From the NCBI GenBank assembly GCA_014360065.1, contig JACIYF010000003.1, positions 1,567-65,566 on the forward strand: DNA of 64,000 nucleotides. The letters run 5' to 3'. Positions 3,401 to 60,240 of the stretch are shown here, piece by piece. Position 1 is the stretch's first letter. Every line of letters begins with the position of its first letter. The notes under the pieces were generated by a model. The model saw only the letters and a list, made by a program, of their open reading frames with translations, made no database searches and was not told the DNA's origin. A program made the translations under genes and the position numbers. This DNA is from Clostridia bacterium (GTDB lineage: Bacteria; Bacillota; DSM-521; Neomoorellales; JACIYF01).

Positions 3401-3456
3401 TTGGCGCGCAGCGGCACGACACCTCAAGCTACATCATACCATGTGGAGTGTCTAGA

Positions 3457-5202: not shown

Positions 5203-5370
5203 TTACAAGAATTCCTGAACTATAGAGTCGCGCTTCCCGGACAGCCTGAAAAAGTCCACCGAGGCGGTGTAGAATCCCTTTCTCTTCAGCCGCCTCAGCA
5301 CCTCGTGGGCGAGGGAAGTCTTGTCTTCCTCGGAGACCGGGCCACCGAGGGGAAATAGTTTTCCAGGCAA
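5203..5370 (-). CDS. Small hypothetical protein (55 aa, TTG start), below the ORF-track size cutoff
   Basis: GGAGGG lies 6 nt before TTG 5370. The translation is (M)PGKLFPLGGPVSEEDKTSLAHEVLRRLKRKGFYTASVDFFRLSGKRDSIVQEFL. It looks protein-like, but I recognise no family. Confidence 0.25.
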   Translation of the reverse strand: MPGKLFPLGGPVSEEDKTSLAHEVLRRLKRKGFYTASVDFFRLSGKRDSIVQEFL

Positions 5371-5662
5371 GGCCAACCCTCCAGTCCTGGGTTTCGTTTA
5401 TTACTAACTACGTAACAAAATATTACATGATGGATAATAAGAGTACAATGGCCCAGCCGCCCGGAGTGCCAGTCAGGTGGAGCCGAAGTTATATCGCCCC
5501 CTCCTGCCGACACGTTCTACGTAGTGAAGCTTGAGTTCACCATCGTCGGCAAATTCCCTCGGTTGGCCCCAAGGGCTGTAAGTCCGGGGGCAAGGAGGCC
5601 CGGTACCCGCCCTGAATTGTGCGGGACTGGCGCCCCTTGCGCTCCACGATTTCCTAAGCTTT

Positions 5663-7264: not shown

Positions 7265-7334
7265 GGCAGGAAAGCTGCCCGTCTTCCTCCTTCTTTCAAA
7301 GTGGTTTTATCCCAGAAAGTCCTCGCCCCCGCCT

Positions 7335-7370
7335 AAAAAATTCGGCCCCTCACCTGGGTGGCGAGCGGCC
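7335..7370 (-). terminator. Intrinsic terminator forming the expression platform of the TPP riboswitch
   Basis: On the minus strand, GGCCGCTCGCC-ACCCA-GGTGAGGGGCC is followed by GAATTTTTT. It sits between the aptamer and the ATG at 7264. Confidence 0.7.
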
Positions 7371-7385
7371 GCTGTCATTTGCAAT

Positions 7386-7483
7386 CACGGTCTATCTCTC
7401 CCTCCGCAGGTATTACCCTGATCAGGTTCAGCGGGTCAGGTGCTCACAGCCCTTTCTCAGCCCCTAACAGGGGCTCCCCGTCG
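7386..7483 (-). promoter_or_regulatory. TPP (THI-box) riboswitch aptamer
   Basis: The minus strand reads GGGGAGC-CCCUGUUAGGGG-CUGAGA...ACCCGCUGAACCUGAUCAGGGUAAUACCUGCGGAGGGA. This matches the conserved THI-box elements GGGGUGC/CUGAGA/ACCC/AACCUGAUC/UAAUACC/GCG-AGGGA. Confidence 0.9.
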
Positions 7484-7522
7484 TTTCTAAGTATGCAATT
7501 GGTTAAACTTCCTTGTGCTTAC

Positions 7523-7551
7523 ATTATAGCACCTGAGCGCTTCGGTGCCAA
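7523..7551 (-). promoter_or_regulatory. Sigma-A-type promoter for the riboswitch-controlled thiamine operon
   Basis: On the minus strand, TTGGCA is followed by 17 nt and then TATAAT, with a TG at the extended -10 position (TGcTATAAT). It lies about 40 nt upstream of the aptamer. Confidence 0.6.
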
Positions 7552-7554
7552 CGC

Positions 7555-7872
7555 TTATTCTTCCACCTCTACCGCCGTACCGCTGGCAGTAATCATGAGC
7601 ATTCCTTCCCGGACTACTTCATAGTCCAAGTCTACTCCCACTACAGCATTGGCGCCGGCCCGCCGGGCTTGATCCAGCATCTCGCTCAAGGCAATTTGCC
7701 TGCCTTCGGATAGTTTAGATTCATAGGCTCCAGAGCGGCCGCCAACGATATCAGTAATGCTGGCCAGAAAATCCCTAACGATATTGGCTCCCATGATGGC
7801 CTCCCCGAAGACTACCCCCAGATAACGCTTGATCCGCCTACCCTCAATGGTATTGGTGGTGGTAACAATCAT
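7555..7872 (-). CDS. YbjQ/UPF0145-family protein (putative heavy-metal-binding)
   Basis: At 105 aa, [22 protein letters not shown]...GGRSGAYE...[15 protein letters not shown] is the typical UPF0145 pattern. Confidence 0.85.
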
Positions 7873-8038
7873 TATTCTTGCCCGCCTTTCGCCAAGGGTT
7901 TCTGAGCGCTTTCATGTTACCACACTGCCCCCGCTCCGCCAAGGCTCAAATCGATAGACTCATGGTTACAAGTATGTTAGGATCAACTTATCCGATGGTT
8001 CCATGGTTCGAAGCTGAGTTGAGAGAGAAGGGCTCGCG

Positions 8039-9178
8039 ATGCGCACCGGAATCGCCAACCTGCCCTTGCATGGGGGAAAATGTCCACCCTGGCTGTTCGA
8101 GCGGATGACCAAGCTGGCTGCCGCTTTGGTGGAAGTGATGGTGGCCGACGCCGGCCCGGATCGGGTACTGCAGCGCCTGGCCGACCCCTTCTGGTTTCAG
8201 GCCTTTGGTTGCGCTTTAGGCTTCGACTGGCATTCTTCTGGCCTTACTACCACTGTCTGCGGCGCCCTGAAGGAAGCCCTAAAGGGCAGGGAATGGGATA
8301 CCGGCATCTTCATCGCCGGGGGTAAGGGCAAGACCAGCTTGCGCACTCCAGAAGAACTGAGGGATTATGGGGAAAGGTTTCCCCTGGCAACCAATCCCGA
8401 TAAGTTGATTTATGCCAGCCGGATGGCCGCCAAGGTAGACAATACCGCCGTCCAAGACGGCTATCAGCTTTATCACCACACTTTCCTTTTCACCGCCTCC
8501 GGGTTATGGGCGGTAATTCAGCAGGGAATGAACGAGTCTCTACGTTGGGCCCGCCGCTATCACTGGCTTAGTACCAAGGTTAGCGATTTCACCTGCGAGC
8601 CGCACCTGGCCGTGTGCTGCGACCACACCGCCATCACCCTGAACTTGGTAGCGGAGGAGAGCGGGGCCGCCCGCCAGGTTATAACCGAAGTAGCAGGAGA
8701 AAAACCGGAAAAGACTTTAGCAGACTTAAAAAAGCTGGGCGAGGCCCTTCGCGCCGCCCGCCGACCCAAGCTACCGGCCGGCACTCCCGCTTCCCAAGCC
8801 TCGCTTACTTTGAGCCTTCCCGCTACCCATCCCATTACTTTTCGCGACCTGCACCCCTCTAGCCTCAACCGAGTATTACTCCGGACCTACTCCCGGCCGC
8901 CCAAAGACTTCAATCAGCTCCTAGCTACTGAGGGGTTGGGGCCCAAATCATTGCGCGCGCTGAGCCTCTTGGCCGAGCTAGCCTACGGCACTCCGCCCAG
9001 TTATCGCGACCCAGTTAAGTATAGCTTTGCCCACGGGGGCAAAGACGGCTACCCTTACCCGGTTGATCGTAAGACTTATGATCAATCGGTGGAATTCCTG
9101 CGCCAAGCCCTCAACTCAGCCAAGGTAGGGCGCACCGAGAAGATTCAAGCCTTCCGGCGCTTAGCCAAGTTTGGCTAG
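8039..9178 (+). CDS. DUF763-family protein
   Basis: The N-terminus MRTGIANLPLHGGKCPPWLFERM...DPFWFQAFGCALGFDWHSSGLTT matches my memory of DUF763. RBS GAGAGAGAAGGG lies upstream. Confidence 0.65.
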   Translation: MRTGIANLPLHGGKCPPWLFERMTKLAAALVEVMVADAGPDRVLQRLADPFWFQAFGCALGFDWHSSGLTTTVCGALKEALKGREWDTGIFIAGGKGKTSLRTPEELRDYGERFPLATNPDKLIYASRMAAKVDNTAVQDGYQLYHHTFLFTASGLWAVIQQGMNESLRWARRYHWLSTKVSDFTCEPHLAVCCDHTAITLNLVAEESGAARQVITEVAGEKPEKTLADLKKLGEALRAARRPKLPAGTPASQASLTLSLPATHPITFRDLHPSSLNRVLLRTYSRPPKDFNQLLATEGLGPKSLRALSLLAELAYGTPPSYRDPVKYSFAHGGKDGYPYPVDRKTYDQSVEFLRQALNSAKVGRTEKIQAFRRLAKFG

Positions 9179-9191
9179 GGAGCGTCCGGCC

Positions 9192-9755
9192 TCACCTTTG
9201 CCGCAGAGAAGTGATTCGATAGCTGAGTTGAGCTTGCATGGCCTGCTGGAGGAAATAGATGAGGCCAGCCAGCATCAGCAAATCGCCTAAGCTGCTCCTC
9301 TTGGGAACTGGAAAAGGCACGAGGATAACATCCGCCAGCCATTTTAGCTTGGTCTGGTCCGAAATCAACCCGTGGGCCACTACCTGCCCGCTGGTCAGCT
9401 CATGGACCAAATTTGCTCCCAGGCCAGTTGCGTCTACTGGCATAATCCCTCCATTGGCGGCAATTACAGCCAGGTTCATCAGCGCCCCCAGGGCCAACAA
9501 CCAAAAGCCTGGCAGGCGGTAGTTGGCAACCAGAAAGAGCACTAAGAGAGCGTACACGGCCCCATAGAGCCATAGCTGAGCTCCCCGGACCCAATCCCAC
9601 CCCCAGGCCGGACCCCAGTCCAGCACTACCCTTACTAGTAAAGCCAATAGCGCTATCCAGATGGCAGCGACATCAATTGAAGCTAAGCGCCTCAAGCTAC
9701 CCTTGCGTAACCAACCAATGATTAGTCCTAGCCCGATGGCTACTAAAATGATCAA
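9192..9755 (-). CDS. DUF5317-like integral membrane protein (partner of the HD-GYP protein)
   Basis: 187 aa with about 5 TM segments and N-terminus MIILVAIGLGLIIGWLRKGSL. It lies directly downstream of an HD-GYP gene, as is usual for this family. Confidence 0.55.
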   Translation of the reverse strand: MIILVAIGLGLIIGWLRKGSLRRLASIDVAAIWIALLALLVRVVLDWGPAWGWDWVRGAQLWLYGAVYALLVLFLVANYRLPGFWLLALGALMNLAVIAANGGIMPVDATGLGANLVHELTSGQVVAHGLISDQTKLKWLADVILVPFPVPKRSSLGDLLMLAGLIYFLQQAMQAQLSYRITSLRQR

Positions 9756-9924
9756 ATGGCCGTCTCCTCCGTAAAAACATTCATTTCCCTCGTTATACGC
9801 CTTTGCCGGCCGCTTCCCCTCTCCAGCCCAGGTGATACTACCTTAGCCGCTCCGTCCAGCACTCAATCCTTGGGTCGTGGGACTTGGCAGGGCATTGGTT
9901 ATCGAGTCGGGACCAGGCCTACTC

Positions 9925-11241
9925 CTAGGTGGCATGGGAAGGAGCAGGCGCAGAAATCCCACCCGTAGAGGAGCTAATCTTACCCGCCACCTGGTGGTCA
10001 AATCCCAGGCGGTCATAAGCACGAATGAAGGCTTGCACCAGCGTGGGGTCGAGCTGGGTTCCAGCGCTAGCTTTGAGCTCCTCTAGGGCGGCCAACGGGC
10101 TCATGGCAGCCCGGTAGGGGCGATTAGAAGTCATGGCATCGAAGGCATCGCAAACAGCAATGATGCGTGACCCTAAAGGAATGGCCTCGCCGCTCAAACC
10201 GTGGGGATAGCCACCTCCATTCCAGTGTTCATGGTGGTAAAGCACGATTCGATAGGCGTCCTTAAAGAAACGCAGTTTCTTGGTAATTTCTGCCCCGACC
10301 GTAGTGTGGAGCTGGACCTCATTCATTTCCTTCTTGTCCAGCCTGCCCGCCTTATTGAGCACCCCGTCGCGAACTGCAATCTTGCCGATATCGTGGAGCA
10401 AAGCCACGTACCGCAATTGCTCCAACTCCTGATCGGGAAGATTGATCTCCTGAGCCAAGGCCACCGCATACCGTGCCACCCGCTCCGAATGGCCGTAGGT
10501 GTACGGATCCTTAGCATCCATGGCGGCGCTAAGGGTTTCAATGGTGTCCAGGTAATTCTGGCGCATATCTCGGTAAAGTTGAAAGGCATGACGGGCTAGA
10601 AGCAGCGGTATAGACAAGAGCAAGACCCCCGCCGCCCCCATGCTTATATAAACAGTAGCCAGCAAAACCCCTAGCGGAGCCAAACCTATGTAGTTGGGCA
10701 CCGCCCAGCGAATGTTGGCGCTCAAGATCCGGTGGATGCGGTCACCGCTGGTCAGGGATATGATTACTATTACCGCCCCAGTGTTAATGACCAGACTTAC
10801 TAGCACCGCTCCTATCAATGGCATCCAAGGAAATGGGCTTAAAACCGAGGCCTGTCCTCCTAGGCTTTCAAAGGCCAGCCCGCCCAAGCCGGCCGCCAAA
10901 GAAAGTTGGCCTAGGTTAAACAAATACTTATACCAAGGGATCTTGATTCCGAAGTTCTTGATGCTTAAGGCATCCGAAGCAACCACAAGTAGGGTGGCGG
11001 GGGCTGCGCCCCAGAGAATTAGAGCGGCAACGTAGAGGCTAAAGCCAACGGTTACAACTCCGCCCTGCGGCAGTTCGACCGGCAACGAATCCGCTACTAC
11101 CAGCAAGATGAAGAACAGCAATAACTCCTTCCAGTCAAAACCCCCCAACCAGACTTCCCGGGCCAGATAGGTCAGAAGGGCTACCCCGGCTATGGTTATT
11201 GCTGCTATATAAATTCTAGCCTGCCGCGGTAGTTCGCCCAC
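9925..11241 (-). CDS. Membrane-anchored HD-GYP domain protein (putative c-di-GMP phosphodiesterase)
   Basis: The N-terminal half has about 6 TM segments. The C-terminus carries HSERVA, HDIGKIAV and HHEHWNGGGYP motifs. It uses a GTG start. Confidence 0.85.
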   Translation of the reverse strand: MGELPRQARIYIAAITIAGVALLTYLAREVWLGGFDWKELLLFFILLVVADSLPVELPQGGVVTVGFSLYVAALILWGAAPATLLVVASDALSIKNFGIKIPWYKYLFNLGQLSLAAGLGGLAFESLGGQASVLSPFPWMPLIGAVLVSLVINTGAVIVIISLTSGDRIHRILSANIRWAVPNYIGLAPLGVLLATVYISMGAAGVLLLSIPLLLARHAFQLYRDMRQNYLDTIETLSAAMDAKDPYTYGHSERVARYAVALAQEINLPDQELEQLRYVALLHDIGKIAVRDGVLNKAGRLDKKEMNEVQLHTTVGAEITKKLRFFKDAYRIVLYHHEHWNGGGYPHGLSGEAIPLGSRIIAVCDAFDAMTSNRPYRAAMSPLAALEELKASAGTQLDPTLVQAFIRAYDRLGFDHQVAGKISSSTGGISAPAPSHAT

Positions 11242-11361
11242 AAGTCATTTCTCCCCGGAGTTATCTGATCTCCAGCAGTAGCTGGCAACCCTAATTCCCA
11301 CTGACTGTGTTAGTATCGGAAGCAGGCGAATGCAAGGTGAGGCTACGCTTTTATCTTCGGC

Positions 11362-11445
11362 TTAGGGATACCACTTGAAGAAGGCGCCGCCAGCTAGTAC
11401 CAGCGTGACCAAAGCGGTGAGGATCTTCAGGATGCGCATCTTCAT
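11362..11445 (-). CDS. Candidate 27-aa single-TM micropeptide
   Basis: GAAGGAG lies 8 nt before the ATG. The product is MKMRILKILTALVTLVLAGGAFFKWYP. It is unlisted because of its size. Confidence 0.3.
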   Translation of the reverse strand: MKMRILKILTALVTLVLAGGAFFKWYP

Positions 11446-11603
11446 CCTGTTCACTCCTTCATCTTAAGCTCCGGCCTTTCGGCCGGGCATCGCTCCGCTT
11501 TGAGGTCCGCTCCGCTCTTTTCCGCTTCGCTAGGTAGCACTCCCGACCCCCGCATCCGCCCCCATCCGATACTTGCCGATCAAAACTCTTCAGCTAGAGG
11601 CAA

Positions 11604-12323
11604 CTAACCCCCCTTCTGCAAAAGCGCTAACCTGCGATTGAGAGCTGCCAGTGTGGCCCGACCAGCTGCCTCCCGGTCATCGCCGTGGCTAAAAGCAGCT
11701 CCAAGCAAGGTCTCCACATCCCGGCCGGACACCCTACCAATGCAGACCAGTATAACTTCTTGTTTGGCTAGTACCAACTTGGCAATATCTTCGATAACAA
11801 ATTGGCCGGGGTCCTCGAGATAGGCTTCCACCGCCTCCAAGGTAGCTACGGCTGCCAACCGCATCTGGTTGCGGGGCGTGCTAAGACCCGCAACCTGGCC
11901 CTGGTATACGTGTCCCCCCAGGGCTATTTCCACCCGAATCTCGGCCGAGGTGCCGCTCACGGTCAAGGTCATGCCCACCCAGCGCGGGCGAATGATAGGC
12001 AAGGGGTGGACCGCATCTGGCTCTTCCCCTTGAACCCTGGCCACGCTAATCTTACGATGGTCAACTTCCACCCCTAGGCGGGCCATAAGCGTCGATTCAA
12101 TATCTCGAGCTATTTGCTTGGGATTAACGCCCGATTCGGCCACCGCATGGATCTCGGCAATCTCGCCCCGGAGATCAGTTTTGACTCTAGCAGCAATAAT
12201 GCCCTTAATTTCTCGGATCACTTCCTCATACACCTGTGGTCCAGGTCCAAGGCGTTGCGGCTGCTTGACCTCATCCAAAAGCGCTTTTCCCTCCCGCACC
12301 AGTGTTGGCCTAGTATTCGACAT
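11604..12323 (-). CDS. Hypothetical protein (~239 aa), family not recognised
   Basis: The ORF is long with good codon usage. I prefer ATG 12323 (MSNTRPTLV, GAGGAAAAG upstream) over the AT-rich 12377 start. It sits upstream of hpf. Confidence 0.5.
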   Translation of the reverse strand: MSNTRPTLVREGKALLDEVKQPQRLGPGPQVYEEVIREIKGIIAARVKTDLRGEIAEIHAVAESGVNPKQIARDIESTLMARLGVEVDHRKISVARVQGEEPDAVHPLPIIRPRWVGMTLTVSGTSAEIRVEIALGGHVYQGQVAGLSTPRNQMRLAAVATLEAVEAYLEDPGQFVIEDIAKLVLAKQEVILVCIGRVSGRDVETLLGAAFSHGDDREAAGRATLAALNRRLALLQKGG

Positions 12324-13199: not shown

Positions 13200-13397
13200 T
13201 TAAAGCCTTACTACGTTAGCAGCCTGTGGGCCTCGCGGACCTTCGACAATATCGAACTCCACTTCCTGGCCTTCGTCTAGGGTCTTAAACCCCTCACCTT
13301 GGATGGCAGAGAAGTGAACAAACACGTCACTACCGTCATCCTTGGTAATAAACCCATAACCCTTCTTTTCGTTGAACCATTTGACCTTGCCGTGCAT
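13200..13397 (-). CDS. CspA-family cold-shock protein
   Basis: [17 protein letters not shown]...DVFVHFSAI contains the RNP1 and RNP2 motifs. Length is 65 aa. Confidence 0.95.
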
Positions 13398-13458
13398 GTT
13401 GAAGCATTCCTCCTAAACTTAACTCCCTCGGCCTTTAATCTGGCCCGCGAGTGACTTC

Positions 13459-13487
13459 ATTATAACCCTAGCTACAGATACTGTCAA
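13459..13487 (-). promoter_or_regulatory. Consensus sigma-A promoter of the cold-shock gene
   Basis: On the minus strand, TTGACA is followed by 17 nt and then TATAAT (both perfect). It lies about 60 nt upstream of the ATG, leaving a 5' UTR. Confidence 0.7.
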
Positions 13488-13558
13488 ACTTTTAGAACCA
13501 CTTGTGTAAATTTCCAGCCGGGTCGCTGGTCCTCGCTGGAAATCCCATGCTGAGCCAC

Positions 13559-16066
13559 CTAAAGCTCCATCTCGGCCTGCGATGACTGGGAAAGCGGCAG
13601 GGCACAAAGCAAATATTTCCGGGCCAGCCCCTTCGCTCCCACCGACGCTAAAACATCGGCTATTCGCAGGTAATCTTGGCCCCGGCGAGGCGAGATCAGG
13701 AGCTCTAATTCATCAGCCACCGCCTGCTCGCCGCCAGTCGCTTTTACAACCCGAGCCAGAGAATAAAGCGGCGGCAGCCAAACCGGGTTGGACTTTAGCG
13801 CTTCCCGAAACGCCCGGGCAGCCTCCTCTTTGTGGCCCAAGCGCTCCCAGGCCAACCCCAGCCCGTGCCAGGCCCGAAAAGTGCCAACCCCATTGACCCC
13901 GCTATAGTGGGCGGAAGCGTCTCCCCATTGCAAACATGACTGATAGGCAAGGGCTGCTAGTTCCCATCTTCCTTGCTTAGCCAAAATCTCGGCCTTCAGG
14001 AACAACAGGTCGGTGAAGCCGGGAAACTGCTTCAAAGCGTTGTCGATCCAGGACAGGGCTGGTTCCAGCTGGCCCAGCTCCATCAAGCAGATGGCCCGCT
14101 TATAAGCTACGTCCGAGGCGTACCCAACCGCCTGCTCTAGCCGGAGATTGCTTAGCTGCTTTAAGGCCTCTTGGTATTTGCCCTCCTGGAAGTCTTCCAC
14201 TGCCAACGCATACTGCCAGTAAGGGTTGGCTGGGTCCTGCCTTCGGGCTCGCTCGAGCAGCCGGCGGTTGCGAGCACTCTTCTTTTTCGCCCCTACCCGC
14301 GGATCCAAATAGCCATAATGAAGGATAGTCACATTAGTAAAGCGAATGCTGTCAGGTCCAGCTTGCTCCCGGATGGAGTCAATTACCTGCTCGTGAATTA
14401 TGCCTCTAAACCTATACTCGGGCCGGCGCCGGAACAGCCGGCAGACATTGTCGGTCACAAAATCAGGTCCCACCGTTGATCCGTAGTAGTTGGCTATGCG
14501 TAGGCAATAAGCCTCCACGTCCTGGCGCCAAAGTAGCCGTCGCAGGACTGGGATATCCCTGGCTTGCAATTCCTCATCGGCATCCAATACCAAGACCCAG
14601 TCGCCTCGGGCCTGCTCCAAGGCATAATTGCGAGCACGAGCGAAGTCCTCGGGCCACGGCAAGGAAAAAACCCGGGCTCCCGCCTGTTTGGCCACCGCAA
14701 TAGTTCCATCCCTGGAACCAGTATCGACTACCACAATGTCGTCCACCGCCTGGACAGCGCTGGCCAGACACCGCCCCAGGCTTTCCTCTTCATCGCGGAC
14801 GATCAGGCACAGGCTGAGGGTAGGACGAGGAGAGGTCAATGTCTCCACCGCCTGGCGTAGCACTTTAAGCTCAGGCCACCGGCGGGCTAAACCACGGCTT
14901 TCCTCAACCCACCGGTCAAGCCGGTAGCGTATCAGTCTGATCCAACCCTCCTCAACCCATGGCGTCGCCTTAAGCTGCGGCAGTATTTTCGGCAAGGCAC
15001 AAAAGGCTTCGTCCTCCCCTCCTTCCCCCAATTGCAGTACCCGAAGAAGAGCTTGAGCTGCCGCTTCCAGTTCCCCCAATTGGCAACAGACTCTGGCTAA
15101 AGCAATCAAGGCTCTCCAGCTACCTACCCCCTTTTCGCTGGTAAACCAAGGCGGAGCATCCCCCATGGCCAGGCAGCGCTCCAAAGCCTCCTTTGCTGCG
15201 TCCAGCTGCCCCAGAGCGCCTAGGATTAACCCCTCCTGAAAGGGTAGGTCAGTATAGGCAGGAAACTTGGCCTCGGCCTCCCGGCAAGCCGAGAGTGCCT
15301 CTTCTAAACGGCCCAAAGCCATCAAGCAATCAATGCGCCTCTTCTCCAGCAACGAGGCAAAGCTCCAGGCCGGATCCAGGTTTTGGCGTGCCTTTTCATA
15401 GCTGGCCAGGGCTTCTGTCAGCTCACCAGCCCGCTGCCGTTCCACTCCCAGGTTGAAGAGGACAAAGGGATCATGCGGCCGCTCAGCTAATTCCAACTGT
15501 AATAGGCGGAGATTGCGGCGAATCTTGTCTCCGCTAGCCACTTGGGCGGCCAGGTAGCCAAAATGTTTCACTCGCACCCCAGCTATTTCGATGCACCCTT
15601 GGTTAGCAGCCACAATGCTGGGCAGGATCTGCTCGTGAACCCGGCCCTGCCAGCGGTACTGGGGTCGCCTCCGAAAAAGGCGCAAAGCTGGGCTTACCAC
15701 TTGCCGGCCCCGGTCATCGATCAGGCTATGGATTACAAGAAAGTAGGCCTCTACTCCCGGCCGGGATAGCAACTCCTTAAGGAGAGGAGCATCCTCAGGA
15801 AAGAGAGTCTCATCGGTATCAAGAAATAGGACCCATTGTCCACCCGCCTTGGAGAGAGCAAAGTTGCGAGCAGCGGCAAAGTCGTCCCGCCATTGGTAGC
15901 GATAAACGCGCGCCCCCAACCGCTTGGCCACCTCTTCGGTAGCATCGTTAGAACCGGTATCCACTACCACTATCTCATCCGCCACTGCTTTCGCACCAGC
16001 CAGACAAGCCTCAAGGCTTGGGGCCGCATCCTTGGCAATAACGCAAAAACTTAAGCTGGGCGGCAT
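13559..16066 (-). CDS. Tandem double module glycosyltransferase: (GT2 domain + TPR repeats) x2, 835 aa
   Basis: There are two GT-A/GT2 cores (SFCVIAKDAA..VVDTGSNDAT..DTDE and SLCLIVRDEE..VVDTGSRDGT..DADE), each followed by TPR-like helical repeats. Its start overlaps the upstream stop as TAATG. Confidence 0.8.
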   Translation of the reverse strand: MPPSLSFCVIAKDAAPSLEACLAGAKAVADEIVVVDTGSNDATEEVAKRLGARVYRYQWRDDFAAARNFALSKAGGQWVLFLDTDETLFPEDAPLLKELLSRPGVEAYFLVIHSLIDDRGRQVVSPALRLFRRRPQYRWQGRVHEQILPSIVAANQGCIEIAGVRVKHFGYLAAQVASGDKIRRNLRLLQLELAERPHDPFVLFNLGVERQRAGELTEALASYEKARQNLDPAWSFASLLEKRRIDCLMALGRLEEALSACREAEAKFPAYTDLPFQEGLILGALGQLDAAKEALERCLAMGDAPPWFTSEKGVGSWRALIALARVCCQLGELEAAAQALLRVLQLGEGGEDEAFCALPKILPQLKATPWVEEGWIRLIRYRLDRWVEESRGLARRWPELKVLRQAVETLTSPRPTLSLCLIVRDEEESLGRCLASAVQAVDDIVVVDTGSRDGTIAVAKQAGARVFSLPWPEDFARARNYALEQARGDWVLVLDADEELQARDIPVLRRLLWRQDVEAYCLRIANYYGSTVGPDFVTDNVCRLFRRRPEYRFRGIIHEQVIDSIREQAGPDSIRFTNVTILHYGYLDPRVGAKKKSARNRRLLERARRQDPANPYWQYALAVEDFQEGKYQEALKQLSNLRLEQAVGYASDVAYKRAICLMELGQLEPALSWIDNALKQFPGFTDLLFLKAEILAKQGRWELAALAYQSCLQWGDASAHYSGVNGVGTFRAWHGLGLAWERLGHKEEAARAFREALKSNPVWLPPLYSLARVVKATGGEQAVADELELLISPRRGQDYLRIADVLASVGAKGLARKYLLCALPLSQSSQAEMEL

Positions 16067-52291: not shown

Positions 52292-53881
52292 TCACACTGC
52301 TGCATCCCTTGGCTGGTGTCGGCGGCGGAACTCAGTAGGGGCCATCCCATGGGCTTTGCGAAATACCCGGGCAAAGTAATTGGCATCGTCATAGCCCACC
52401 TGACGAGCAATTTCATAGATGGGAGCATCAGTATTAAGGAGGAGATCAATGGCTTTTTTCAAGCGTACCCGTTCAAGATACGCCTTAAAACTGGTTCCAG
52501 TTTGCTTGCGGAAAAGGGTACTGAAGTACGACGGGCTCAGACAAACAGTGCGGGCTACTTCCTTTAGCGTAATGCTGCGGCCCAGATGCTTTTGTACGTA
52601 TGCCTCAGCTTCAGCAACCATTTGCTCCGCGTGACTCATTCCCGTTTGGCTTGCCAGGACAAGAAGAGCAGTGATGGTTTGTCGCATCCATTCCCTCAGG
52701 CTTGTTTCTCCTACAACTTTCGCTAACCAGCGCAGCTGCCGACAGCTCAAATGGAGCACCTCCCTGGGGTCGACCATACGGCTCAAGGTAGCCCGCGAGG
52801 CTATGGCCAGGATCTCCGCTGCCCTTGCCTGCCTTTCGCCAACGTAGGGGGAGTTGTGGATAACCTCATCTAGAAGCTGCAGGGCCAGATGGATTGCCTG
52901 GTCAGGCCTGCCCAGCCGGATGGCAACGGCAAGCTCTTCCTCCTTTTCCCACGGGTAAACCCAGTTGGAGGGGCCAGCTGCCTTGATGCTACTGAAGCTC
53001 AGCCACGGCTCCCGGAGGCGATTCCGGGTAGCCTTGAGGAACTCCAGGGCCTGGAGGGCCTCAGCATACGAGACGGTTAAAGAAGAAGGATCCGGTACGG
53101 GCCTGCCGATGCCGATCAAGGTGGTGGTACCGCACCTTTCCAGGAGGCCTGAATACATCCGTTCCCCAAGCTCTGCCACCCTTTCAGGCGACGGCTCCTC
53201 AGCAGAAGAAGAAAGGAGCAGTACCAGCCTGCCATCCACGGCAGCTCCAAAGGCGCCCCACGGCCAGGCTAGATCCTTGGCGGTATCGATCCACTCCCGC
53301 CAGTCTGCTCTGCCGTCTTGGGACTCTATAACTAGGCAGACGTGATGCAATTGGCAAGACTGGGAATTGCTTCTATGGGACGGTTTAGCTGAGGGATCGG
53401 CCTGACTTCCGGTCCCCTGGGGAATCAGTGCATGGACTAGGTACTGCTCAAGCAGTTGGCAGGTAGACTTAAGGTTGGCAGCAGCACTTCTTTGTGCTTC
53501 GCTAGCGGCAAGGGAATCGATGCAACGTTGGAGGGCCTGGTGGAGCTGTTCGTCTTCTACCGGCTTGACCAGGTAATCAAAGGCTCCATGCCGCAGCGCT
53601 TCTTGGGCATAGTCGAAACGGTCATAAGCAGTCAAGATTACCAGCCGAGCTTCTGGAGAGACTTCTTGCAGTTGCTCCATAATCTCTAGGCCGCTCGGGC
53701 CCGGCATACGAATATCCAAGAAAACGAGATTATGCCTGTGTTTAGCGGCTGCAGCCAGTGCCTCCCTCGCGTTGGCCGCTTCATCTATGCGTTCCCAATT
53801 CACTCCTGACTCGCTCAGCATGAGAGCAAGGCCCTGGCGCACCACTGGCTCGTCATCAACGATCAGTGCTCTAAGCTGCAT
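52292..53881 (-). CDS. Response regulator with REC domain, long linker domain and AraC-type HTH (YesN-like)
   Basis: LIVDDEP...FLDIRMPG..G..., the AraC signature YFSTLFRKQTG.SFKAYL...R..KA..LL and IA..VGYDD..YF.R.F are present. It overlaps the kinase gene by 19 nt. Confidence 0.85.
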   Translation of the reverse strand: MQLRALIVDDEPVVRQGLALMLSESGVNWERIDEAANAREALAAAAKHRHNLVFLDIRMPGPSGLEIMEQLQEVSPEARLVILTAYDRFDYAQEALRHGAFDYLVKPVEDEQLHQALQRCIDSLAASEAQRSAAANLKSTCQLLEQYLVHALIPQGTGSQADPSAKPSHRSNSQSCQLHHVCLVIESQDGRADWREWIDTAKDLAWPWGAFGAAVDGRLVLLLSSSAEEPSPERVAELGERMYSGLLERCGTTTLIGIGRPVPDPSSLTVSYAEALQALEFLKATRNRLREPWLSFSSIKAAGPSNWVYPWEKEEELAVAIRLGRPDQAIHLALQLLDEVIHNSPYVGERQARAAEILAIASRATLSRMVDPREVLHLSCRQLRWLAKVVGETSLREWMRQTITALLVLASQTGMSHAEQMVAEAEAYVQKHLGRSITLKEVARTVCLSPSYFSTLFRKQTGTSFKAYLERVRLKKAIDLLLNTDAPIYEIARQVGYDDANYFARVFRKAHGMAPTEFRRRHQPRDAAV

Positions 53882-55089
53882 CCCTTCACTTCCCCCATGC
53901 TGTCAATATAGGGCAGAAAAAGACGGACTTCAGTGCCGTTGCCGGGGGAGCTCTGCAAGGTAAGGTCGCCCTGTTGGTCAAACATCAGCCGGTACCGGTG
54001 GTACACGTTGAGGAGGCCAGAGCTGGTACCATTAAGCGACCGCTTCATGGCACGCCGGATGGCCAGCACCTTCTCCCGGCCCATGCCTACCCCATTGTCT
54101 CGTACGCTGAGGCACACTCTCCCGCTCTTATCCAGGCAGCCACTGATCCATATGGTTCCGCCCGACTCCAGCGGCTCGATGCCATGGACCAGGGCGTTTT
54201 CCACTAGAGGCTGTAGTGACAGCGGCAAGATGAGTACCCGCAATAGGTGCTCGGGCACCTCCTTGGCTATGTGGAGGCGGTCACCGAAGCGCACCTTCTG
54301 GATGGAGAGGTAGCTGTCCACCAGCTCCAGCTCTTGGGCCAGCGGGATCAGGGGATCCTTGGGCCGGAATGTCAGCTTCAGAAGCCGTGCCAGCATCTGG
54401 GTCACCTGTCGGGTCTGGGGAGCGTTCTCGATCAGGGCCAGCATGGCGACTGTGTTGAGGGCATTGAATAGGAAGTGGGGGTTGATCCGGGCTTGCAGGG
54501 CTTTCAGTTCAGCCTCCCGGCGGAACTTTTCCGCCTCGGCCCGCTCTCTGGCAGAGACCGTAATAGCTACTTTGACAAAACAATTGCTAAGAGCGTCGAG
54601 TATTTCGCCAGTGACTCGGAGCCGCTCGTGATTCCAGACGGGTAGCTCGCAGAAGGCTCTTAATAGTTCATTGCTATCGACGCCTATCTCTCTGGCAAGA
54701 CAGGAGATGGTCTCCAGCTGCTTCTCTGTTGGCTTCTCGGCTACGATCTCGCCGCACACCAGGGCTCCGATGCATTTGCCTTCGACGGCTATGGGCACTG
54801 TGATCCGCCTCGCCTGAGCATGGCAGTGGCTATAACGGGCGCTCATGTCGGCGGAGCACTCGACAATTGCCTGCCTGGCCGATGCCTTGCAGCGCTCTCG
54901 TCCCGCCGGAGTGCTGCGAACCAGTTGGCAGAACCGGCATGGCTGCTTAGTATCGGGAGTGAGGATGTATTCCCCGTCGAGATCGACAAACTTTAACCAT
55001 AGGTCGAAGAACTCTCCTATGGCGTCCACCAGGGGCTGGAGGATTCTGATTGGCACTGCCAAGGGGTTAGACTGCGCCTTCTTGGCCAT
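53863..55089 (-). CDS. Soluble sensor histidine kinase: N-terminal PocR-type sensory domain plus LytS/YesM-type His_kinase and HATPase
   Basis: No TM segment is apparent. The Cys-rich PocR-like core is CRFCQLVRS...RC...SHCHAQ...VPI..EGKCIGALVCGE. INPHFLFNALN (His_kinase) and LVENALVHG...DNGVGM (HATPase) follow. Confidence 0.8.
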   Translation of the reverse strand: MAKKAQSNPLAVPIRILQPLVDAIGEFFDLWLKFVDLDGEYILTPDTKQPCRFCQLVRSTPAGRERCKASARQAIVECSADMSARYSHCHAQARRITVPIAVEGKCIGALVCGEIVAEKPTEKQLETISCLAREIGVDSNELLRAFCELPVWNHERLRVTGEILDALSNCFVKVAITVSARERAEAEKFRREAELKALQARINPHFLFNALNTVAMLALIENAPQTRQVTQMLARLLKLTFRPKDPLIPLAQELELVDSYLSIQKVRFGDRLHIAKEVPEHLLRVLILPLSLQPLVENALVHGIEPLESGGTIWISGCLDKSGRVCLSVRDNGVGMGREKVLAIRRAMKRSLNGTSSGLLNVYHRYRLMFDQQGDLTLQSSPGNGTEVRLFLPYIDSMGEVKGCSLEH

Positions 55090-55522: not shown

Positions 55523-56005
55523 GTGGCCAAGTTAACGGAAGAAATGAAAACTGTTCTCAAGGTGGTAGGCAAGGGTGGAGCGGTGGTACATCTTACCACG
55601 TGCAGCGCTGACGGGGAGCCGAACATAGTCGGCGAGCGATTTGTTACTCACTACAAGGATGAATATATCCTCATCGCCGAGATGTACGCTCAGAAGACCA
55701 AGGTGAACCTGAACGAAAACCCGGTGGGATGCATCTCTATTGCCAACCCGGTGCGCGGCCACACGTGGGTATTCCGGGGTCCCTGCACCATCATCCGCCA
55801 CGATGCGCCCGACAACTACCAGTGGTACGGAATCAAGGCTGGCGAGGTGCTCGAAGAGTGGGGCAACTGGGCGGAGAAAGAACCGCCCGACGAGGTGCCG
55901 CCGGATATCAGGCCTCCCAAGCTGGTGCAGCGGGGCCTGATTGCGCTCAAGGTGGACGAGGTGTACAGCTGGGCGCCCGAAGAGGCGGGACGCAAGATCC
56001 TTTAG
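55523..56005 (+). CDS. PNPOx-like split-barrel flavoprotein with a Pro/Glu-rich C-terminal extension
   Basis: AAAGGGGGT lies 6 nt before GTG 55523. ...HLTTCSADGEPNIVGERF...YILIAEMYAQKTKVNL..NP and a C-terminal EKEPPDEVPPDIRPPK are present. Confidence 0.55.
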   Translation: MAKLTEEMKTVLKVVGKGGAVVHLTTCSADGEPNIVGERFVTHYKDEYILIAEMYAQKTKVNLNENPVGCISIANPVRGHTWVFRGPCTIIRHDAPDNYQWYGIKAGEVLEEWGNWAEKEPPDEVPPDIRPPKLVQRGLIALKVDEVYSWAPEEAGRKIL

Positions 56006-56020
56006 GCAGGAGGGGTGAGA

Positions 56021-56434
56021 ATGGCTGTGCCATTGACGCCGCGGATGAAGGATTGGCTAGAAACGTTGGGAGCACACATTGCCACTGCGACTAGGTCAGG
56101 CTTTCCCACGGTAACGGTAGTTGACCGGGCAATTGTGGACGGGGGGAAGGTTACATTTATCCTTTCCAGCGCTCAGGCGGAGCAGATCAGGGGTAACCTG
56201 GAAGAGAACCCTCGGGTCGCCATCGGTCCTGGCGGTCTAGGCGTGGTTCGTGCTCCGTACCAGTTTAAAGGCAATGGGCACCTGGAGGGCGACCGGCTGG
56301 TGGTCGAGGTTGACAAGATCTACTGCACCCGTCCTGGCCCGGAGGCAGGGCTACGGCTGGATGTACTGGGATACGAGAAGATGCGAGAGTTTGATGAGAG
56401 CCGCTGGACCGATATGGCTCCGAAGCCAAATTGA
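56021..56434 (+). CDS. PNPOx-like split-barrel flavoprotein
   Basis: GGAGGGGTGAG lies before ATG 56021. ...HIATATRSGFPTVTVVD...AEQIRGNLEENPRVAI is present. It begins 15 nt after the preceding gene. Confidence 0.55.
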   Translation: MAVPLTPRMKDWLETLGAHIATATRSGFPTVTVVDRAIVDGGKVTFILSSAQAEQIRGNLEENPRVAIGPGGLGVVRAPYQFKGNGHLEGDRLVVEVDKIYCTRPGPEAGLRLDVLGYEKMREFDESRWTDMAPKPN

Positions 56435-56510: not shown

Positions 56511-58283
56511 ATGGAACGTGAGATATTAGCTGCTTTACATGCAGCGACTGCCCAGCCCGACTACCTGACCACGGAGAAATTTGATGCCATTCTTGGAGGG
56601 TTTGGGGTCTTCAACCTCGGGATCTGGGCAGCAGCCAACGTTATCGCTAAGGAGAAGCAGAAAGGGAAAAAGATCAACGTAACCGTCAGCAATGAAAAGA
56701 CTACAGATATCGATGAAGTAGCCCGTAAGGCAGTCAAGGTGCTCATGGATTGCGGGGCTGACGCTTCCAACGCGTCGCTGGCGGCGGCAACCCTTCTCTA
56801 CTGGGCGGGAAGCAGCACCACTGCTGGCATACCTGCGCCCAACCGGAAATTGGGGGCGGTATGCCGCATGGCAGCTGGGGCGCCGGCAGGTAGGGTGGCC
56901 AACATTCCCACCGAGAAGCTCAATAACAAGATCTCAGGTTTTGCTGCCGTCCAGGCTATGTACCAGGCCATGCAGGGTCAAATCCTTGCTCCTTGGAGCG
57001 GGGACCTAACGCCGCTGGGAGTTGCAGGCAGTCCGGTCACCGGTCATACCCGGGTGGGGGAGGACCTGCTGTTTCCGGAGTTGGCCCAAAAGCTGGTACC
57101 GATTGGCGTGGAGGCAATGCTTCAGGCTTACCGGTCGGTAGGCATCAAACCGTGTCGCTGGATGGCCAGCCTATTGGCCTCCGCGGCTGCCTTGGAAATC
57201 CTGCACCCCGATGCTTACGTGGGCGAAGAATGGGGTCCCTTCCTGCAGACTCGTACTCCTTACGTTTGTGGTTTGGCAGCGGTGAAGGCAGCCAAGATGC
57301 CTGAGAAGATCCATATCCGCGGCACCGGGGAAGAGCTAGAGACTGCCAAAGTAGTTGGCGACCTAGCCATGATCCTCAAGGATTGCGGAGCTCCCACGGT
57401 GGTGGGCATGATCATGTTCAATGAGATCAACGCCCTGATCGCCGAAGGTGCCATCCTAGGTGTGGGCAGAAGCGGCGGACCCTTGCTCTTGCCGCTGACC
57501 CACTGGTGTACGTCGGCGTCGCTGTCGCTCTATCTACTTAGTAAGGGAATGGCGGAAGAGGAGGTGGCGGATGTCATTTCCCGAACCATGGATGCCTACT
57601 TCCAGCCTGAGCACGCGGCAGTAGCCACCAACCTACTAGCTCGGCGGGCAAACTTCATCGAGAGGGGCCCGGTAACCAGAGCGGTGATAATGGCCACGGA
57701 GCCTTCCCTAATCCAGTCGGTTCTTAAGCGGGCGCGGTATGCGTACGAGGGGCTGAGGGCGGGTAAGACCCTGACCGAAGTCACCCAGGAATTGGAACTC
57801 CAACGCATTGAAGATATCGGCTCCGGTACGGCCAGGATTTTCTCCCAAGTCCTGGGGCGCAACATAGAGTATGTTCGCTTCCTCAATGTCCGGCCCGGGT
57901 CAGGCAGGCGTACTCATAAGTTTGCCAAGAGGTACTTCGCCTTTGACGGTTATGTGGATGTGGAGCTGAAAGTGGACGGAAAGGTCTACCGCTTCGAGAA
58001 TATTTATGCAGAGACCATTCCCAACGCTCTTTTAAACCAAGATGCAGAAACCCTGGATCTGGTCCAGTGTTTCGCTGCTGGCGCTGTTGACCTTCTCAAC
58101 GCTGGTGCTGTAGCCATGGATGTGGTGGTGCCGGCTTGCGTAGCGGCAGCTATGGGCATGAACCCGGAGGAAGCTGTACAGCAGGCATCCGAAGGTGCTA
58201 CCATCAGCATGAGTATTCCGGTTCCAACCATTACCGAGTCGGCGACCCTGGCAAGCCGGATAGCCCGAGGGTTGCAGGACTAG
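56511..58283 (+). CDS. 590-aa Ala/Gly-rich soluble protein, no family recognised (core of the PocR-TCS-associated operon)
   Basis: The ORF is long and clean, with GAAAGGAAGG upstream of ATG 56511. There are 8 scattered Cys but no CxxC cluster. I recognise no Rossmann, P-loop or radical-SAM motif. Confidence 0.7.
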   Translation: MEREILAALHAATAQPDYLTTEKFDAILGGFGVFNLGIWAAANVIAKEKQKGKKINVTVSNEKTTDIDEVARKAVKVLMDCGADASNASLAAATLLYWAGSSTTAGIPAPNRKLGAVCRMAAGAPAGRVANIPTEKLNNKISGFAAVQAMYQAMQGQILAPWSGDLTPLGVAGSPVTGHTRVGEDLLFPELAQKLVPIGVEAMLQAYRSVGIKPCRWMASLLASAAALEILHPDAYVGEEWGPFLQTRTPYVCGLAAVKAAKMPEKIHIRGTGEELETAKVVGDLAMILKDCGAPTVVGMIMFNEINALIAEGAILGVGRSGGPLLLPLTHWCTSASLSLYLLSKGMAEEEVADVISRTMDAYFQPEHAAVATNLLARRANFIERGPVTRAVIMATEPSLIQSVLKRARYAYEGLRAGKTLTEVTQELELQRIEDIGSGTARIFSQVLGRNIEYVRFLNVRPGSGRRTHKFAKRYFAFDGYVDVELKVDGKVYRFENIYAETIPNALLNQDAETLDLVQCFAAGAVDLLNAGAVAMDVVVPACVAAAMGMNPEEAVQQASEGATISMSIPVPTITESATLASRIARGLQD

Positions 58284-58326: not shown

Positions 58327-58623
58327 GTGGCAAACACCGGTAATGGTAGCGGCGGGCGAAAGCTGCCTAAAAAGATGCCCTGGGTCATACCTTCACAGTG
58401 TGAGGGGTGTGGCGACTGCGTCAACCGCTGCCAGCGCAAGGGTCTGGTGATGTTGGAAACTAATGTTGCTGGGGTATACGTGCCGTGGCTTCTGGAGCCG
58501 GACCTGTGCTCCGGCTGCGGTCGGTGTGCCAGCGGCTGCGTCGTGGGCGGCATTGTCATGACCGAGTACGTAGAGCAGGCTAGGCGGCGCTTTCTGGAGA
58601 CACGACCGCGGATTGCTGTTTAG
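58327..58623 (+). CDS. Small 2x[4Fe-4S] ferredoxin-like protein
   Basis: CEGCGDCVNRC and CSGCGRCASGC motifs are separated by about 30 aa. The start is uncertain (GTG 58327 or ATG 58375). Confidence 0.65.
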   Translation: MANTGNGSGGRKLPKKMPWVIPSQCEGCGDCVNRCQRKGLVMLETNVAGVYVPWLLEPDLCSGCGRCASGCVVGGIVMTEYVEQARRRFLETRPRIAV

Positions 58624-58684: not shown

Positions 58685-59140
58685 GTGCGTGAGGTAAGCC
58701 TGCGGGAGCTGGTAAACTATGTCAGGGTAGCTGGAGGCTATGCCGGTTACACCGACGCTGAGCGGGCAGTTAGATCCGTGCTGGGAGGAGTTTTGAGGGT
58801 TACGGAGCCTAGCGAGCGGACGGCGCTTGTGACTATCCTTCCTGCCGATTTAAGGGAGTTGTGGCAGGGGCCTGGTAACCCCGCCACCGACCGGACCAAA
58901 GAGTCTGCAAACGGTGAGGCTCGGGATAGCGAAGCTCTGCTACAAGCTGTCTGCCACCAGGCCAGGTATAGCGAGGGGTCCGAGGCACGACGGGCAATTC
59001 TGGCTGTATTCGGAGCACTGAAGGAGAAGCTCCAGGAGCGTACTGCCGCCTGGGCCGACAAGCTGCCGCAGGCGGCCCGCCCCTTTTGGGAGCGGGCCCA
59101 TACCATCGATGAACGGCAGGACGCCTACCAGTGCCTCTGA
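58685..59140 (+). CDS. DUF2267-family protein (two repeats)
   Basis: The pattern (Y..V...GG......AERA.R.VL..L...........LP..LR..W) appears twice. It uses a GTG start after GAAGGAG. Confidence 0.5.
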   Translation: MREVSLRELVNYVRVAGGYAGYTDAERAVRSVLGGVLRVTEPSERTALVTILPADLRELWQGPGNPATDRTKESANGEARDSEALLQAVCHQARYSEGSEARRAILAVFGALKEKLQERTAAWADKLPQAARPFWERAHTIDERQDAYQCL

Positions 59141-59181
59141 CGCTGAGGCAGAGGTACCTGGCAGGTACCGGGGGTGGGGAG

Positions 59182-59769
59182 ATGACAGAGTCTTGTCTGC
59201 TTCTGGCCCAGGTAGATGATGTGACCGGCGAGGTGTTGGGCCGGGCAGGAGATGACTTGATGGCGCTTGGCGCTCGCAACGTACAGCTTTTGTCGGGGCT
59301 GAGCAAGAAAGGGCGCCCAGCGTATGTTCTGCTTGTGGATACAACTCAGGAGAAGGTTGTTTCCGTTGGTAGCTACCTGGCTTTGGAACTGGGTGTGTGG
59401 GGCTACCACGTCATACCGACAGAGCACCGGCATATGAGCGTTGCTTTCAGGGAAGTCACGGTGCATCTGCTCGGGAAAAAGGACGAACGCAGACTGTTGT
59501 GCCGAGTAAAAGAGGTCCGGGACGGTGAAAAGCTTGTGGGCCTAAAGGTGGAGCACGACTTTATCTGTCACCTGCAGGAGCGTCTACGGCAGGAAGGAGT
59601 CGAGTGCTCCCTGCGCGCCCTACGGGTGGCGTTGGAGAGCAGGCTATGGGAGGAGGCATCTGCCATAAGGCTAAGCGTCTCCGGCGGCAGACTGATTGTT
59701 AGTTCTGACCGGGACTGCTCTTCTATGCGGGAAGGTCCTGCTGGCCTCGTTGTTGAAGGTTCATATTAG
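59182..59769 (+). CDS. Stand-alone LarC-C-terminal-like (DUF111/LarC2-like) domain protein
   Basis: AQVDDVTGEVLGRAGDDLMALGARNVQLLSGLSKKGRPAYVLLV...LELGVWGYHV...R...VKV...EHDF parallels, from memory, LarC2 (E.NLDD.TGE.LGY....LL.AGA.DV...PI.MKK.RP...L.VL...ETTT.GVR...PEY.DC). Confidence 0.5.
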   Translation: MTESCLLLAQVDDVTGEVLGRAGDDLMALGARNVQLLSGLSKKGRPAYVLLVDTTQEKVVSVGSYLALELGVWGYHVIPTEHRHMSVAFREVTVHLLGKKDERRLLCRVKEVRDGEKLVGLKVEHDFICHLQERLRQEGVECSLRALRVALESRLWEEASAIRLSVSGGRLIVSSDRDCSSMREGPAGLVVEGSY

Positions 59770-59823
59770 GAGCCGACAGGACTACCAGTCCCACCTTAAG
59801 TTGCCGGGCATTTGCCGCATAAG

Positions 59824-60240
59824 CTAGAGCCGAGCAAGGAACTCCGCGGGCGGACAATTGCTATTCTCTGGTATTCCTTAATATCCAGTAGGTGCTCGGC
59901 GCCGCTGACGATGCAGTCCGCGCCCGCCTCCAGCGCAGCAGCAACAAACTTATCGTCATCCGGGTCCGCACTTGCTCCTTTAACCTCAATCTTGCCTGAA
60001 ACTATGGTTGCCAGCCCCGGAGCCCCGCAAGATATTTCCCGGCCAAGGCTTCATCTATGCGCCCGTAGTAGCGCCGCAGTTTCTCCCTTTGGAGCACTTC
60101 AGCCACTTCATCCAGGATAGCTGGGGAGAGAATGAGTTCGAATTGCTTTTGTCGCCAAGCCCTAATTAGCAGGGCAGGCGCTCCCTGGGGACTGATTAAG
60201 CCGAAACCAAAACGTTGGTGTCAAGTACAACTTGCTGAAT
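59824..60240 (-). pseudogene. Decayed PIN-domain (PIN_3-type TA toxin) gene: no start codon, at least 3 frameshifts
   Basis: Fragments lie in three frames: VLDTNVLVSA | LISPQGAPALLIRAWRQKQFELILSPAILDEVAEVLQREKLRRYYG | GKIEVKGASADPDDDKFVAAALEAGADCIVSGAEHLLDIKEYQRIAIVRP | AEFLARL-stop. The N-terminus overlaps the nagA stop codon. Confidence 0.6.

Follow-up and report, generated by a model that had tools for sequence, protein, structure and literature searches.

Nickel-pincer cofactors are known to be used by the enzymes of the LarA family, by NphT of the aldo-keto reductase (AKR) type and, as cited in PMC13524815, by an NPAD-dependent ornithine cyclodeaminase. In LarA and NphT, the nickel-pincer nucleotide (NPN) is tethered and ligated by lysine and histidine residues (PMC13524815). 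Hundreds of prokaryotes carry the biosynthesis genes for the nickel-pincer mononucleotide (NPMN) but no LarA, hence other users of the cofactor must exist, and adjacency to the genes for LarB, LarC and LarE is a validated route to their discovery (PMC13524815). In the biosynthetic protein LarC, the LarC2 part forms a hexameric core with CTP bound at the subunit interfaces; it CMPylates the pyridinium-bisthiocarboxylate intermediate (P2TMN) and then passes the product to LarC1 (PMC13510736). Here we describe a gene for a 590-aa protein (hereafter, the anchor) in a stretch of 64,000 nucleotides from a Clostridia bacterium (assembly GCA_014360065.1, contig JACIYF010000003.1, positions 1,567 to 65,566; hereafter, the window). 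Our literature search found no paper describing the anchor family. From its gene context we consider it somewhat more likely than not that the anchor is the catalytic subunit, bearing the cofactor, of a so far undescribed NPN-linked enzyme. It is thus a strong candidate for a nickel-pincer-linked enzyme of a new kind, one whose LarC2-like partner would be obligatory.

The anchor family is locked to a gene for a stand-alone LarC2-like protein, very often to larB, larE and larC, and in one case to nickel import. A pattern scan using one genome per species recovered 46 anchor loci. Since the patterns were tailored to the core clade, this count is a minimum. These loci come from Moorellales, Desulfofundulus, Desulfovirgula and other Bacillota, Nitrospirota/Thermodesulfovibrionia, Nitrospinota, Desulfobacter, Chloroflexi, Thermoleophilia and Actinobacteria. 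Gene context was assessed by calling and clustering open reading frames (ORFs) in the fetched loci, and the census was then redone by tblastn, because long antisense ORFs in GC-rich loci masked genes and the ORF-based census had undercounted the LarC2-like genes. Antisense ORFs that overlap the anchor or the LarC2-like gene, such as those at 7722-9788 of locus L003 and 7331-7903 of L026 (both on the minus strand), beat them in longest-ORF calling. In the final census, 35 of the 36 genome loci with enough flank have the LarC2-like gene directly after the anchor, with at most the ferredoxin and DUF2267 genes in between; in the window the two are separated by both of these, whereas in most relatives they are immediate neighbours. 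Five loci (L006, L009, L010, L030 and L035) contain a full-length LarC of 400-427 aa in addition to the stand-alone LarC2-like gene. The latter is therefore an extra paralogue dedicated to the anchor and not a part of a split larC.

Lar genes also accompany the family in aerobes, whose loci were reached by searching with the LarC2-like protein of the window. In Mesorhizobium (M. shonense), Albidovulum and Flexivirga, the operon encodes a 593-595-aa protein followed by the LarC2-like protein, full-length LarC, LarE and LarB. The large proteins have no Pfam domain, and those of Mesorhizobium and Flexivirga are 41% (E 1e-127) and 38% (E 8e-116) identical to the anchor, respectively. The lar products pass the NCBIfam equivalog cut-offs, with scores of 228.6 for LarE (cut-off 150), 241 for LarB (175) and 170 for LarC1 (90). 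Rhizobium tropici CIAT 899 carries the same five-gene operon on its symbiotic plasmid pRtrCIAT899b (L058, NC_020061.1 123638-129808), where it ends with a HoxN/HupN/NixA nickel/cobalt transporter, and the operon is present on four further plasmids or chromids (three from Rhizobium and one from Ciceribacter). Altogether, lar genes adjoin the anchor homologue in all four aerobe-type operons, and the homologue stands there in the position that larA, the cofactor user, occupies in lar operons.

Several other features of the rhizobial operons were recorded. In CIAT 899, the annotation shows two short hypothetical proteins in the larE region, and this gene may therefore be frameshifted in the strain. 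An insertion sequence element and DsbA/thioredoxin fragments lie just upstream of the operon. The PatB, RidA and ABC-transporter neighbours of the rhizobial operons resemble midABCD, and we considered a role in mimosine catabolism; we abandoned this idea, since CIAT 899 is reported neither to degrade mimosine nor to possess the mimosine transporter (PMC11524260).

The LarC2-like protein of the window matches both the sequence model and the fold of LarC2. Its Pfam match covers the C-terminal part only, and its score on the NCBIfam LarC2 model NF052512 is borderline (50.2 bits against a cut-off of 50). Translation probably starts at M18 (position 59182) and not at 59131, since the homologues are 164-200 aa long. 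The AlphaFold model of the product of 59182-59769 (pLDDT 92.3) has as its best Foldseek match MK0293 of Methanopyrus kandleri (3C19, E 7e-10), and also matches LarC2 of L. plantarum (6BWQ, E 6e-8; 6BWO, E 2.5e-7) with target-normalised TM scores of 0.63-0.66. When compared with the C-terminal domains of six full-length LarC proteins from the same loci, the stand-alone proteins form a distinct clade. This clade retains the KKxRPG and N-terminal acidic motifs, and carries EHxF instead of PEYEDC and G-Y-H instead of TLG-V-R.

Outside the aerobes, we distinguished two types of anchor loci. The window (PNPOx) type has two to three PNPOx-like genes, DUF2267, often a ferredoxin, and a GntR or PocR regulator; Nitrospirota loci of this type additionally have a small membrane protein. 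LarB, LarE or LarC is encoded within 10 kb in 14 of the 16 PNPOx-type loci. The URO-D type is characterised by an MtaA/CmuA-like methyltransferase just upstream of the anchor, which scores 157-160 bits on MtaA/CmuA-type models versus 65 bits on HemE and carries an HxC...C motif that we take to be a zinc site. These loci often also contain genes for a corrinoid protein, the activase RACo, DUF1638, DUF2284 and CbbQ/vWA-like proteins. No LarA, AKR or ornithine cyclodeaminase domain was found in the Pfam-annotated loci.

This diversity of contexts bears on the question whether nickel-pincer chemistry is involved at all. The anchor could be the core of a ferredoxin-, flavin- or corrinoid-linked enzyme without such chemistry. 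The LarC2-like protein would then be a ferredoxin-fold scaffold put to a new use, and the adjacency of the lar genes would have another reason. The five-gene operon of the anchor homologue, LarC2-like protein, LarC, LarE and LarB in four unrelated aerobes, with a nickel transporter in one of them, and the co-occurrence with lar genes in the PNPOx-type loci are hard to explain in this way, and argue for a functional link between the anchor and the lar genes. Even among the URO-D-type loci, the one in STL-NIT1 (L004/L049) is embedded in larE, larB ... larC1. Nevertheless, several findings weigh against an NPN-linked enzyme, and the first three of them favour this alternative. First, larB, larE and larC1 are all absent from the 64-kb window, so that the adjacency to LarBCE genes seen for relatives of the anchor does not extend to the window itself. 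Second, STL-NIT1 provides the only one of the nine URO-D-type loci with LarB, LarE or LarC within 10 kb; the other eight have none, and have the MtaA/CmuA-like methyltransferase and often corrinoid genes instead. Third, the stand-alone LarC2-like clade differs from LarC2 where the CTP pocket of the latter would lie (PMC13510736), and the window partner, which lacks PEYEDC and is marginal on the NCBIfam model, may not bind CTP or any Lar intermediate. Finally, the known NPN users LarA and NphT need no extra LarC2, and a model of a new NPN enzyme leaves the constant partner unexplained. On the whole, we regard an enzyme without nickel-pincer chemistry as rather unlikely.

The constancy of the partner raises another alternative, namely that the anchor and the LarC2-like protein together make or modify the cofactor and do not use it. 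They might form an alternative cyclometallase, with the anchor in place of LarC1, or a maker of a variant pincer cofactor such as a dinucleotide form. The pairing would then mirror that of LarC1 and LarC2 within LarC (PMC13510736). One variant pincer cofactor, NPAD in ornithine cyclodeaminase, is cited in PMC13524815, and some anchor loci contain MoxR-type AAA+ and vWA genes, which are typical where metal centres are assembled. The size of the anchor and its identity of more than 50% across phyla are compatible with an enzyme as well as with a maturase. Full-length LarC is also present in many loci, however, and a second cyclometallase is not obviously needed beside it; moreover, hhalign sees no relation between the anchor and LarC1 (probability 0.1%), and the compact five-gene operons of aerobes contain no other consistent candidate for the cofactor user. 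A cofactor-making machine is thus doubtful, about as much so as the lack of nickel-pincer chemistry, and we retain the anchor as the favoured candidate for the user.

The anchor itself is a genuine gene, far beyond a chance ORF, because it has 257 homologues at E<=1e-3, of which the listed ones show about 100% query coverage and 52-100% identity. Its ATG start is preceded by GAAAGGAAGG, the ribosome-binding site is good, and the N-terminus is kept in the homologues. Among the genes of its row, which all lie on the same strand with gaps of 9, 76, 43, 61 and -10 nt between them, it has the longest ORF. These observations bear out the preliminary description of the gene, made from the sequence by eye, which had called it the longest ORF of the operon and of clean coding character. 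The description was also correct in calling the protein Ala/Gly-rich with eight Cys residues: Ala accounts for 14.9% and Gly for 8.3% of the residues, Cys is found at positions 81, 118, 215, 253, 292, 333, 520 and 543, and there are seven His in total. The segment that it quoted corresponds to residues 293-324.

The same description recognised no familiar catalytic or cofactor motif and termed the protein an orphan, a view to be given up if a confident match (E<1e-10) to a characterised family appeared. Searches against Pfam, NCBIfam, PADLOC and PDB, as well as by Foldseek, gave no such match. In Pfam and NCBIfam, nothing was better than E 0.19 for the anchor, and no Pfam model reached E<=0.01 for any of 23 diverse family members; PADLOC had no match, and the PDB searches with the single sequence (phmmer) and with the profile returned noise only. 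Because these searches were all empty, the failure to recognise the anchor is not merely a limit of analysis by eye. The protein is an orphan only insofar as it lacks annotation, since hundreds of close homologues exist in at least six phyla.

The best 120 of the 257 homologues are almost all 588-608 aa long (two are shorter) and 52-100% identical to the anchor. When 1.84 billion cluster representatives were scanned exhaustively with HMMER, only 120 clusters matched; about 16 of these are full-length subfamilies with 33-41% identity, all named 'hypothetical'. The listed homologues are likewise all 'hypothetical' except for one 'tRNA splicing endonuclease'. This name and 'methylthioribose-1-phosphate isomerase', each attached to one metagenome entry, are unsupported, and we rejected both as annotation noise. 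The family is invariant in length (~590 aa), with more than 50% identity across Bacillota, Nitrospirota, Desulfobacterota, Nitrospinota, Chloroflexi and Actinobacteria, and has relatives at about 40% identity in rhizobia and Flexivirga. No archaeal homologue of the anchor was recovered in these searches. Some clusters contain two divergent anchor paralogues of about 40% identity (L004/L049 4859-9767, L034 9980-14169, L010, L023, L030 and L051), sometimes flanking a URO-D or LarC2-like gene, which suggests a heteromer or functional diversification.

Conservation across the family points to polar and charged residues. The positions conserved throughout the superfamily are N111, R112, K113, R119, K136, H179, E184, D185, E229, H232, D234, H268, K290, D291, E312, R466 and D479, most of them within the motifs P-x-x-N-R-K-L-G...R (residues 108-119), P-T-x-K-x-x-N-K (133-140), G-H-x-x-x-G-E-D (178-185), L-E-I-x-H-P-D (228-234), H-I-R-G (268-271) and L-K-D-x-G-x-P-T-V-V-G-M (289-300). 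Several His, Lys, Arg, Asp and Glu are kept; the preliminary description had suggested checking the charged residues. The eight Cys that it emphasised are not conserved: there is no invariant Cys column among 33 homologues, and every one of the eight gives way to another residue in some members. This makes an Fe-S or thiol role of the Cys residues unlikely, and we rejected it. The internal duplication that had been suggested was not found either, when six segments and the two halves of the protein were compared by hhalign.

The AlphaFold2 model of the anchor, built on 33 homologues, is confident, with a mean pLDDT of 88.6 and a pTM of 0.91. The predicted fold consists mostly of helices and includes a small beta element at 452-495. 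A Foldseek search of the model against PDB found nothing (best E 0.11, TM ~0.10), and the matches to transporters were non-significant. An integral membrane protein was rejected on hydropathy (GRAVY 0.14): the family-averaged Kyte-Doolittle profile (19-residue window, threshold 1.6) has a single hydrophobic region, at 528-546, which contains Asp and Asn. Comparison by hhalign of the anchor family with alignments of LarC1, LarC2, LarB, LarE, URO-D and PNPOx proteins from the fetched loci revealed no homology.

The largely helical fold and the lack of a recognisable catalytic motif would suit a non-catalytic structural, chaperone or regulatory protein. Such a role is very improbable, because the conserved motifs hold many polar and charged residues that are invariant (His, Asp, Glu, Arg, Lys and Asn), and because length is constant and identity high (above 50%) across phyla. 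In addition, the sole low-confidence parts of the model are two conserved Gly-rich loops, at 27-30 and 321-324, and in this respect they resemble the flexible loops typical of ligand binding. By analogy, the conserved Lys and His residues are of the kind that tethers and ligates NPN in LarA and NphT, which supports a role of the anchor as cofactor-bearing subunit.

Based on these data, we propose a mechanism in which the anchor would be the central subunit: NPN/NPMN, or a cofactor closely derived from it, would be passed to the anchor and used there. The candidate cofactor-binding residues are some of K113, K136 and K290 together with H179, H232 and H268. The LarC2-like partner would deliver or activate the pyridinium-bisthiocarboxylate cofactor; alternatively, it might serve as an oligomeric core on which the anchor docks, as LarC1 does on LarC2. 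The preliminary description had placed the protein between flavoproteins and a ferredoxin, which is indeed the case (two PNPOx-like proteins are encoded upstream and a 2x[4Fe-4S] ferredoxin downstream), and had inferred a substrate-handling component. This is plausible in the sense of a central catalytic subunit, but the LarC2-like gene and the nickel-pincer link had been overlooked. The ferredoxin and the two split-barrel flavoproteins in the operon suggest that the reaction is a net redox one, unlike the redox-neutral racemisation by LarA. Electrons would flow from ferredoxin, one at a time, to flavin as a one-to-two-electron converter, and then as hydride to the pincer cofactor or the substrate. 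In Nitrospirota loci, a homologue of the window ferredoxin makes up the C-terminal domain of a NuoF-like protein (~730 aa); this fusion to an NAD(P)H/flavin/FeS module, beside a CO dehydrogenase/Prismane-family protein, lends support to net redox chemistry. The PocR sensor encoded next to the operon would respond to a small organic molecule and thereby induce it.

Table 1. The anchor gene, its operon and the adjacent regulators in the window (position 1 is the first nucleotide of the window)
Feature	Coordinates	Strand	Evidence
Response regulator with AraC-type helix-turn-helix (HTH)	52292..53881	-	Response_reg 2.8e-28, HTH_18, HTH_AraC
PocR-domain sensor histidine kinase	53863..55089	-	PocR 1.1e-30, His_kinase, HATPase_c
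PNPOx-like split-barrel flavoprotein	55523..56005	+	Pfam PF01243 E 9.6e-10
Second, divergent PNPOx-like protein	56015..56434	+	PF01243 E 3.1e-5, 24.8 bits, below cut-off 28.1
Anchor, 590 aa, unannotated highly conserved family	56511..58283	+	ORF, ribosome-binding site (RBS), 257 homologues
2x[4Fe-4S] ferredoxin	58327..58623	+	Pfam Fer4_7 E 4.9e-8
DUF2267 protein	58685..59140	+	Pfam PF10025 E 7e-18
Stand-alone LarC2-like protein	59131..59769	+	Pfam PF01969 E 1.8e-14, C-terminal part only

The genes around the anchor in the window (Table 1) are, for the most part, its recurrent neighbours. A PNPOx-like gene co-occurs with the anchor in 16 of the 28 well-flanked loci. For the first of the two in the window, the mechanical ORF start is 55454, and GTG at 55523 is probably the true start, because homology to the related Moorellales locus L052 begins there and a AAAGGGGG RBS precedes it. 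The second, divergent PNPOx-like protein is also a conserved neighbour of the anchor (cluster 3 of the census), and the DUF2267 gene, found in 13 of the 28 well-flanked loci, is conserved in loci of the window type. The kinase and response regulator genes are transcribed divergently, just upstream of the operon, and the same pair flanks the operon in L001, L006/L052, L008, L009 and L035; this two-component system probably senses for and controls the anchor operon. The orientation of the pair differs between loci, being divergent from the operon in the window (52292-55089) and co-directional with it in L052 (6028-8842). A scan of the operon with Rfam identified no riboswitch or other element, and the promoter and terminator scan was uninformative.

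The window and L052, which is 89% identical, part company at the end of the operon. In L052, larB and full-length larC directly follow the LarC2-like gene (13243-15253). Nucleotide similarity between the two stops at 59561, inside the LarC2-like gene, and in the window this gene is followed at 59770-60220 by unrelated amino-sugar genes on the minus strand (amidohydrolase, glucosamine-6-P isomerase family and PIG-L). The cofactor genes of this genome are either located elsewhere or lost.

Several anchor loci of other lineages have extended contexts. In marine Desulfobacter and Nitrospina-type metagenome-assembled genomes, the anchor and LarC2-like genes end a complete corrinoid methyltransferase kit (L054, a TARA marine contig, 1-12323; also L019, L022 and L033), which comprises genes for a CbbQ-like AAA+ protein, a vWA-like protein of ~890 aa, DUF2284, an MtaA-like URO-D protein, a B12-binding protein, the RACo activase, DUF1638 and a second MtaA-like URO-D protein. 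Thermodesulfovibrionia clusters (L053 10450-17430; also L014, L015, L017, L020 and L032) encode the Prismane/CO-dehydrogenase-family and NuoF-like proteins mentioned above, and then a DsrE-like protein and a MoxR AAA+/vWA pair. In a metagenome-assembled genome of Nitrospinota (L028/L005 1-10288), the trio of URO-D, anchor and LarC2-like genes comes directly after a cobalamin biosynthesis operon on the same strand, which includes cbiQ, cbiO, cbiD, genes for several precorrin methylases, cbiG and cbiJ.

Very few nickel enzymes are known, and the anchor family offers a concrete, testable candidate user of the pincer cofactor. It is present in genetically tractable organisms, including Mesorhizobium and R. 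tropici CIAT 899 with its symbiotic plasmid. If our proposal is true, nickel biochemistry would gain a new scaffold and probably new chemistry, and a role would be assigned to the stand-alone 'DUF111/LarC2' genes. As a tentative and more specific possibility, the anchor may represent a structurally unprecedented nickel-pincer scaffold, the third or fourth, which needs its own LarC2-like partner and serves ferredoxin/flavin-driven net reduction in the window type and methyl chemistry fed by the MtaA-like methyltransferase in the URO-D/corrinoid type. Either would give the organometallic nickel cofactor a new reaction class, spread from thermophilic anaerobes to rhizobial symbiotic plasmids.

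By sequence and Foldseek, the anchor has no detectable relationship to the AKR scaffold or to LarA. NphT, an NPMN-dependent hydride transferase, is a TIM-barrel AKR of ~290 aa from an NAD(P)H-dependent superfamily (Nat Chem 2026, PMC13524815); PF00248 is absent from the anchor and 22 other family members, and Foldseek gave no TIM-barrel match. Covalent binding of NPMN adds 450 Da to NphT and LarA. The Pfam scans detected no ornithine cyclodeaminase domain, and no separate homology test was made against that scaffold. The closest structural relative of the partner, MK0293, is a stand-alone protein of ~177 aa, as the window partner is, and shows that stand-alone LarC2-type proteins also exist in archaea; it is a structural-genomics protein of unknown function. 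With LarC, the anchor locus shares a two-part organisation, in that the anchor and a LarC2-type module resemble LarC1 plus LarC2. However, the anchor is unrelated to LarC1 in the hhalign comparison with the LarC/LarC1 alignment and in NCBIfam, its seven His form no cluster and hence no His-rich nickel patch, and its partner differs from LarC2 in lacking PEYEDC and usually has a canonical LarC beside it.

LarA (lactate racemase and the 2-hydroxyacid racemases/epimerases of its family) differs from the anchor in sequence and fold. The anchor has no LarA-type Pfam domain (none at E<=1) and no LarA match in PDB at E<=10 by sequence or profile, and at 590 aa and mostly helical it does not match the LarA fold in Foldseek. 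It is also always accompanied by a LarC2-like partner, which LarA does not need, and here by a ferredoxin and flavoproteins. What the two have in common concerns context and residues: relatives of the anchor, though not the window itself, show the operon place of larA beside larB, larC and larE, and the family has conserved Lys and His of the NPN-tethering kind, for which hydride transfer at the pyridinium C4, as in LarA, would be expected.

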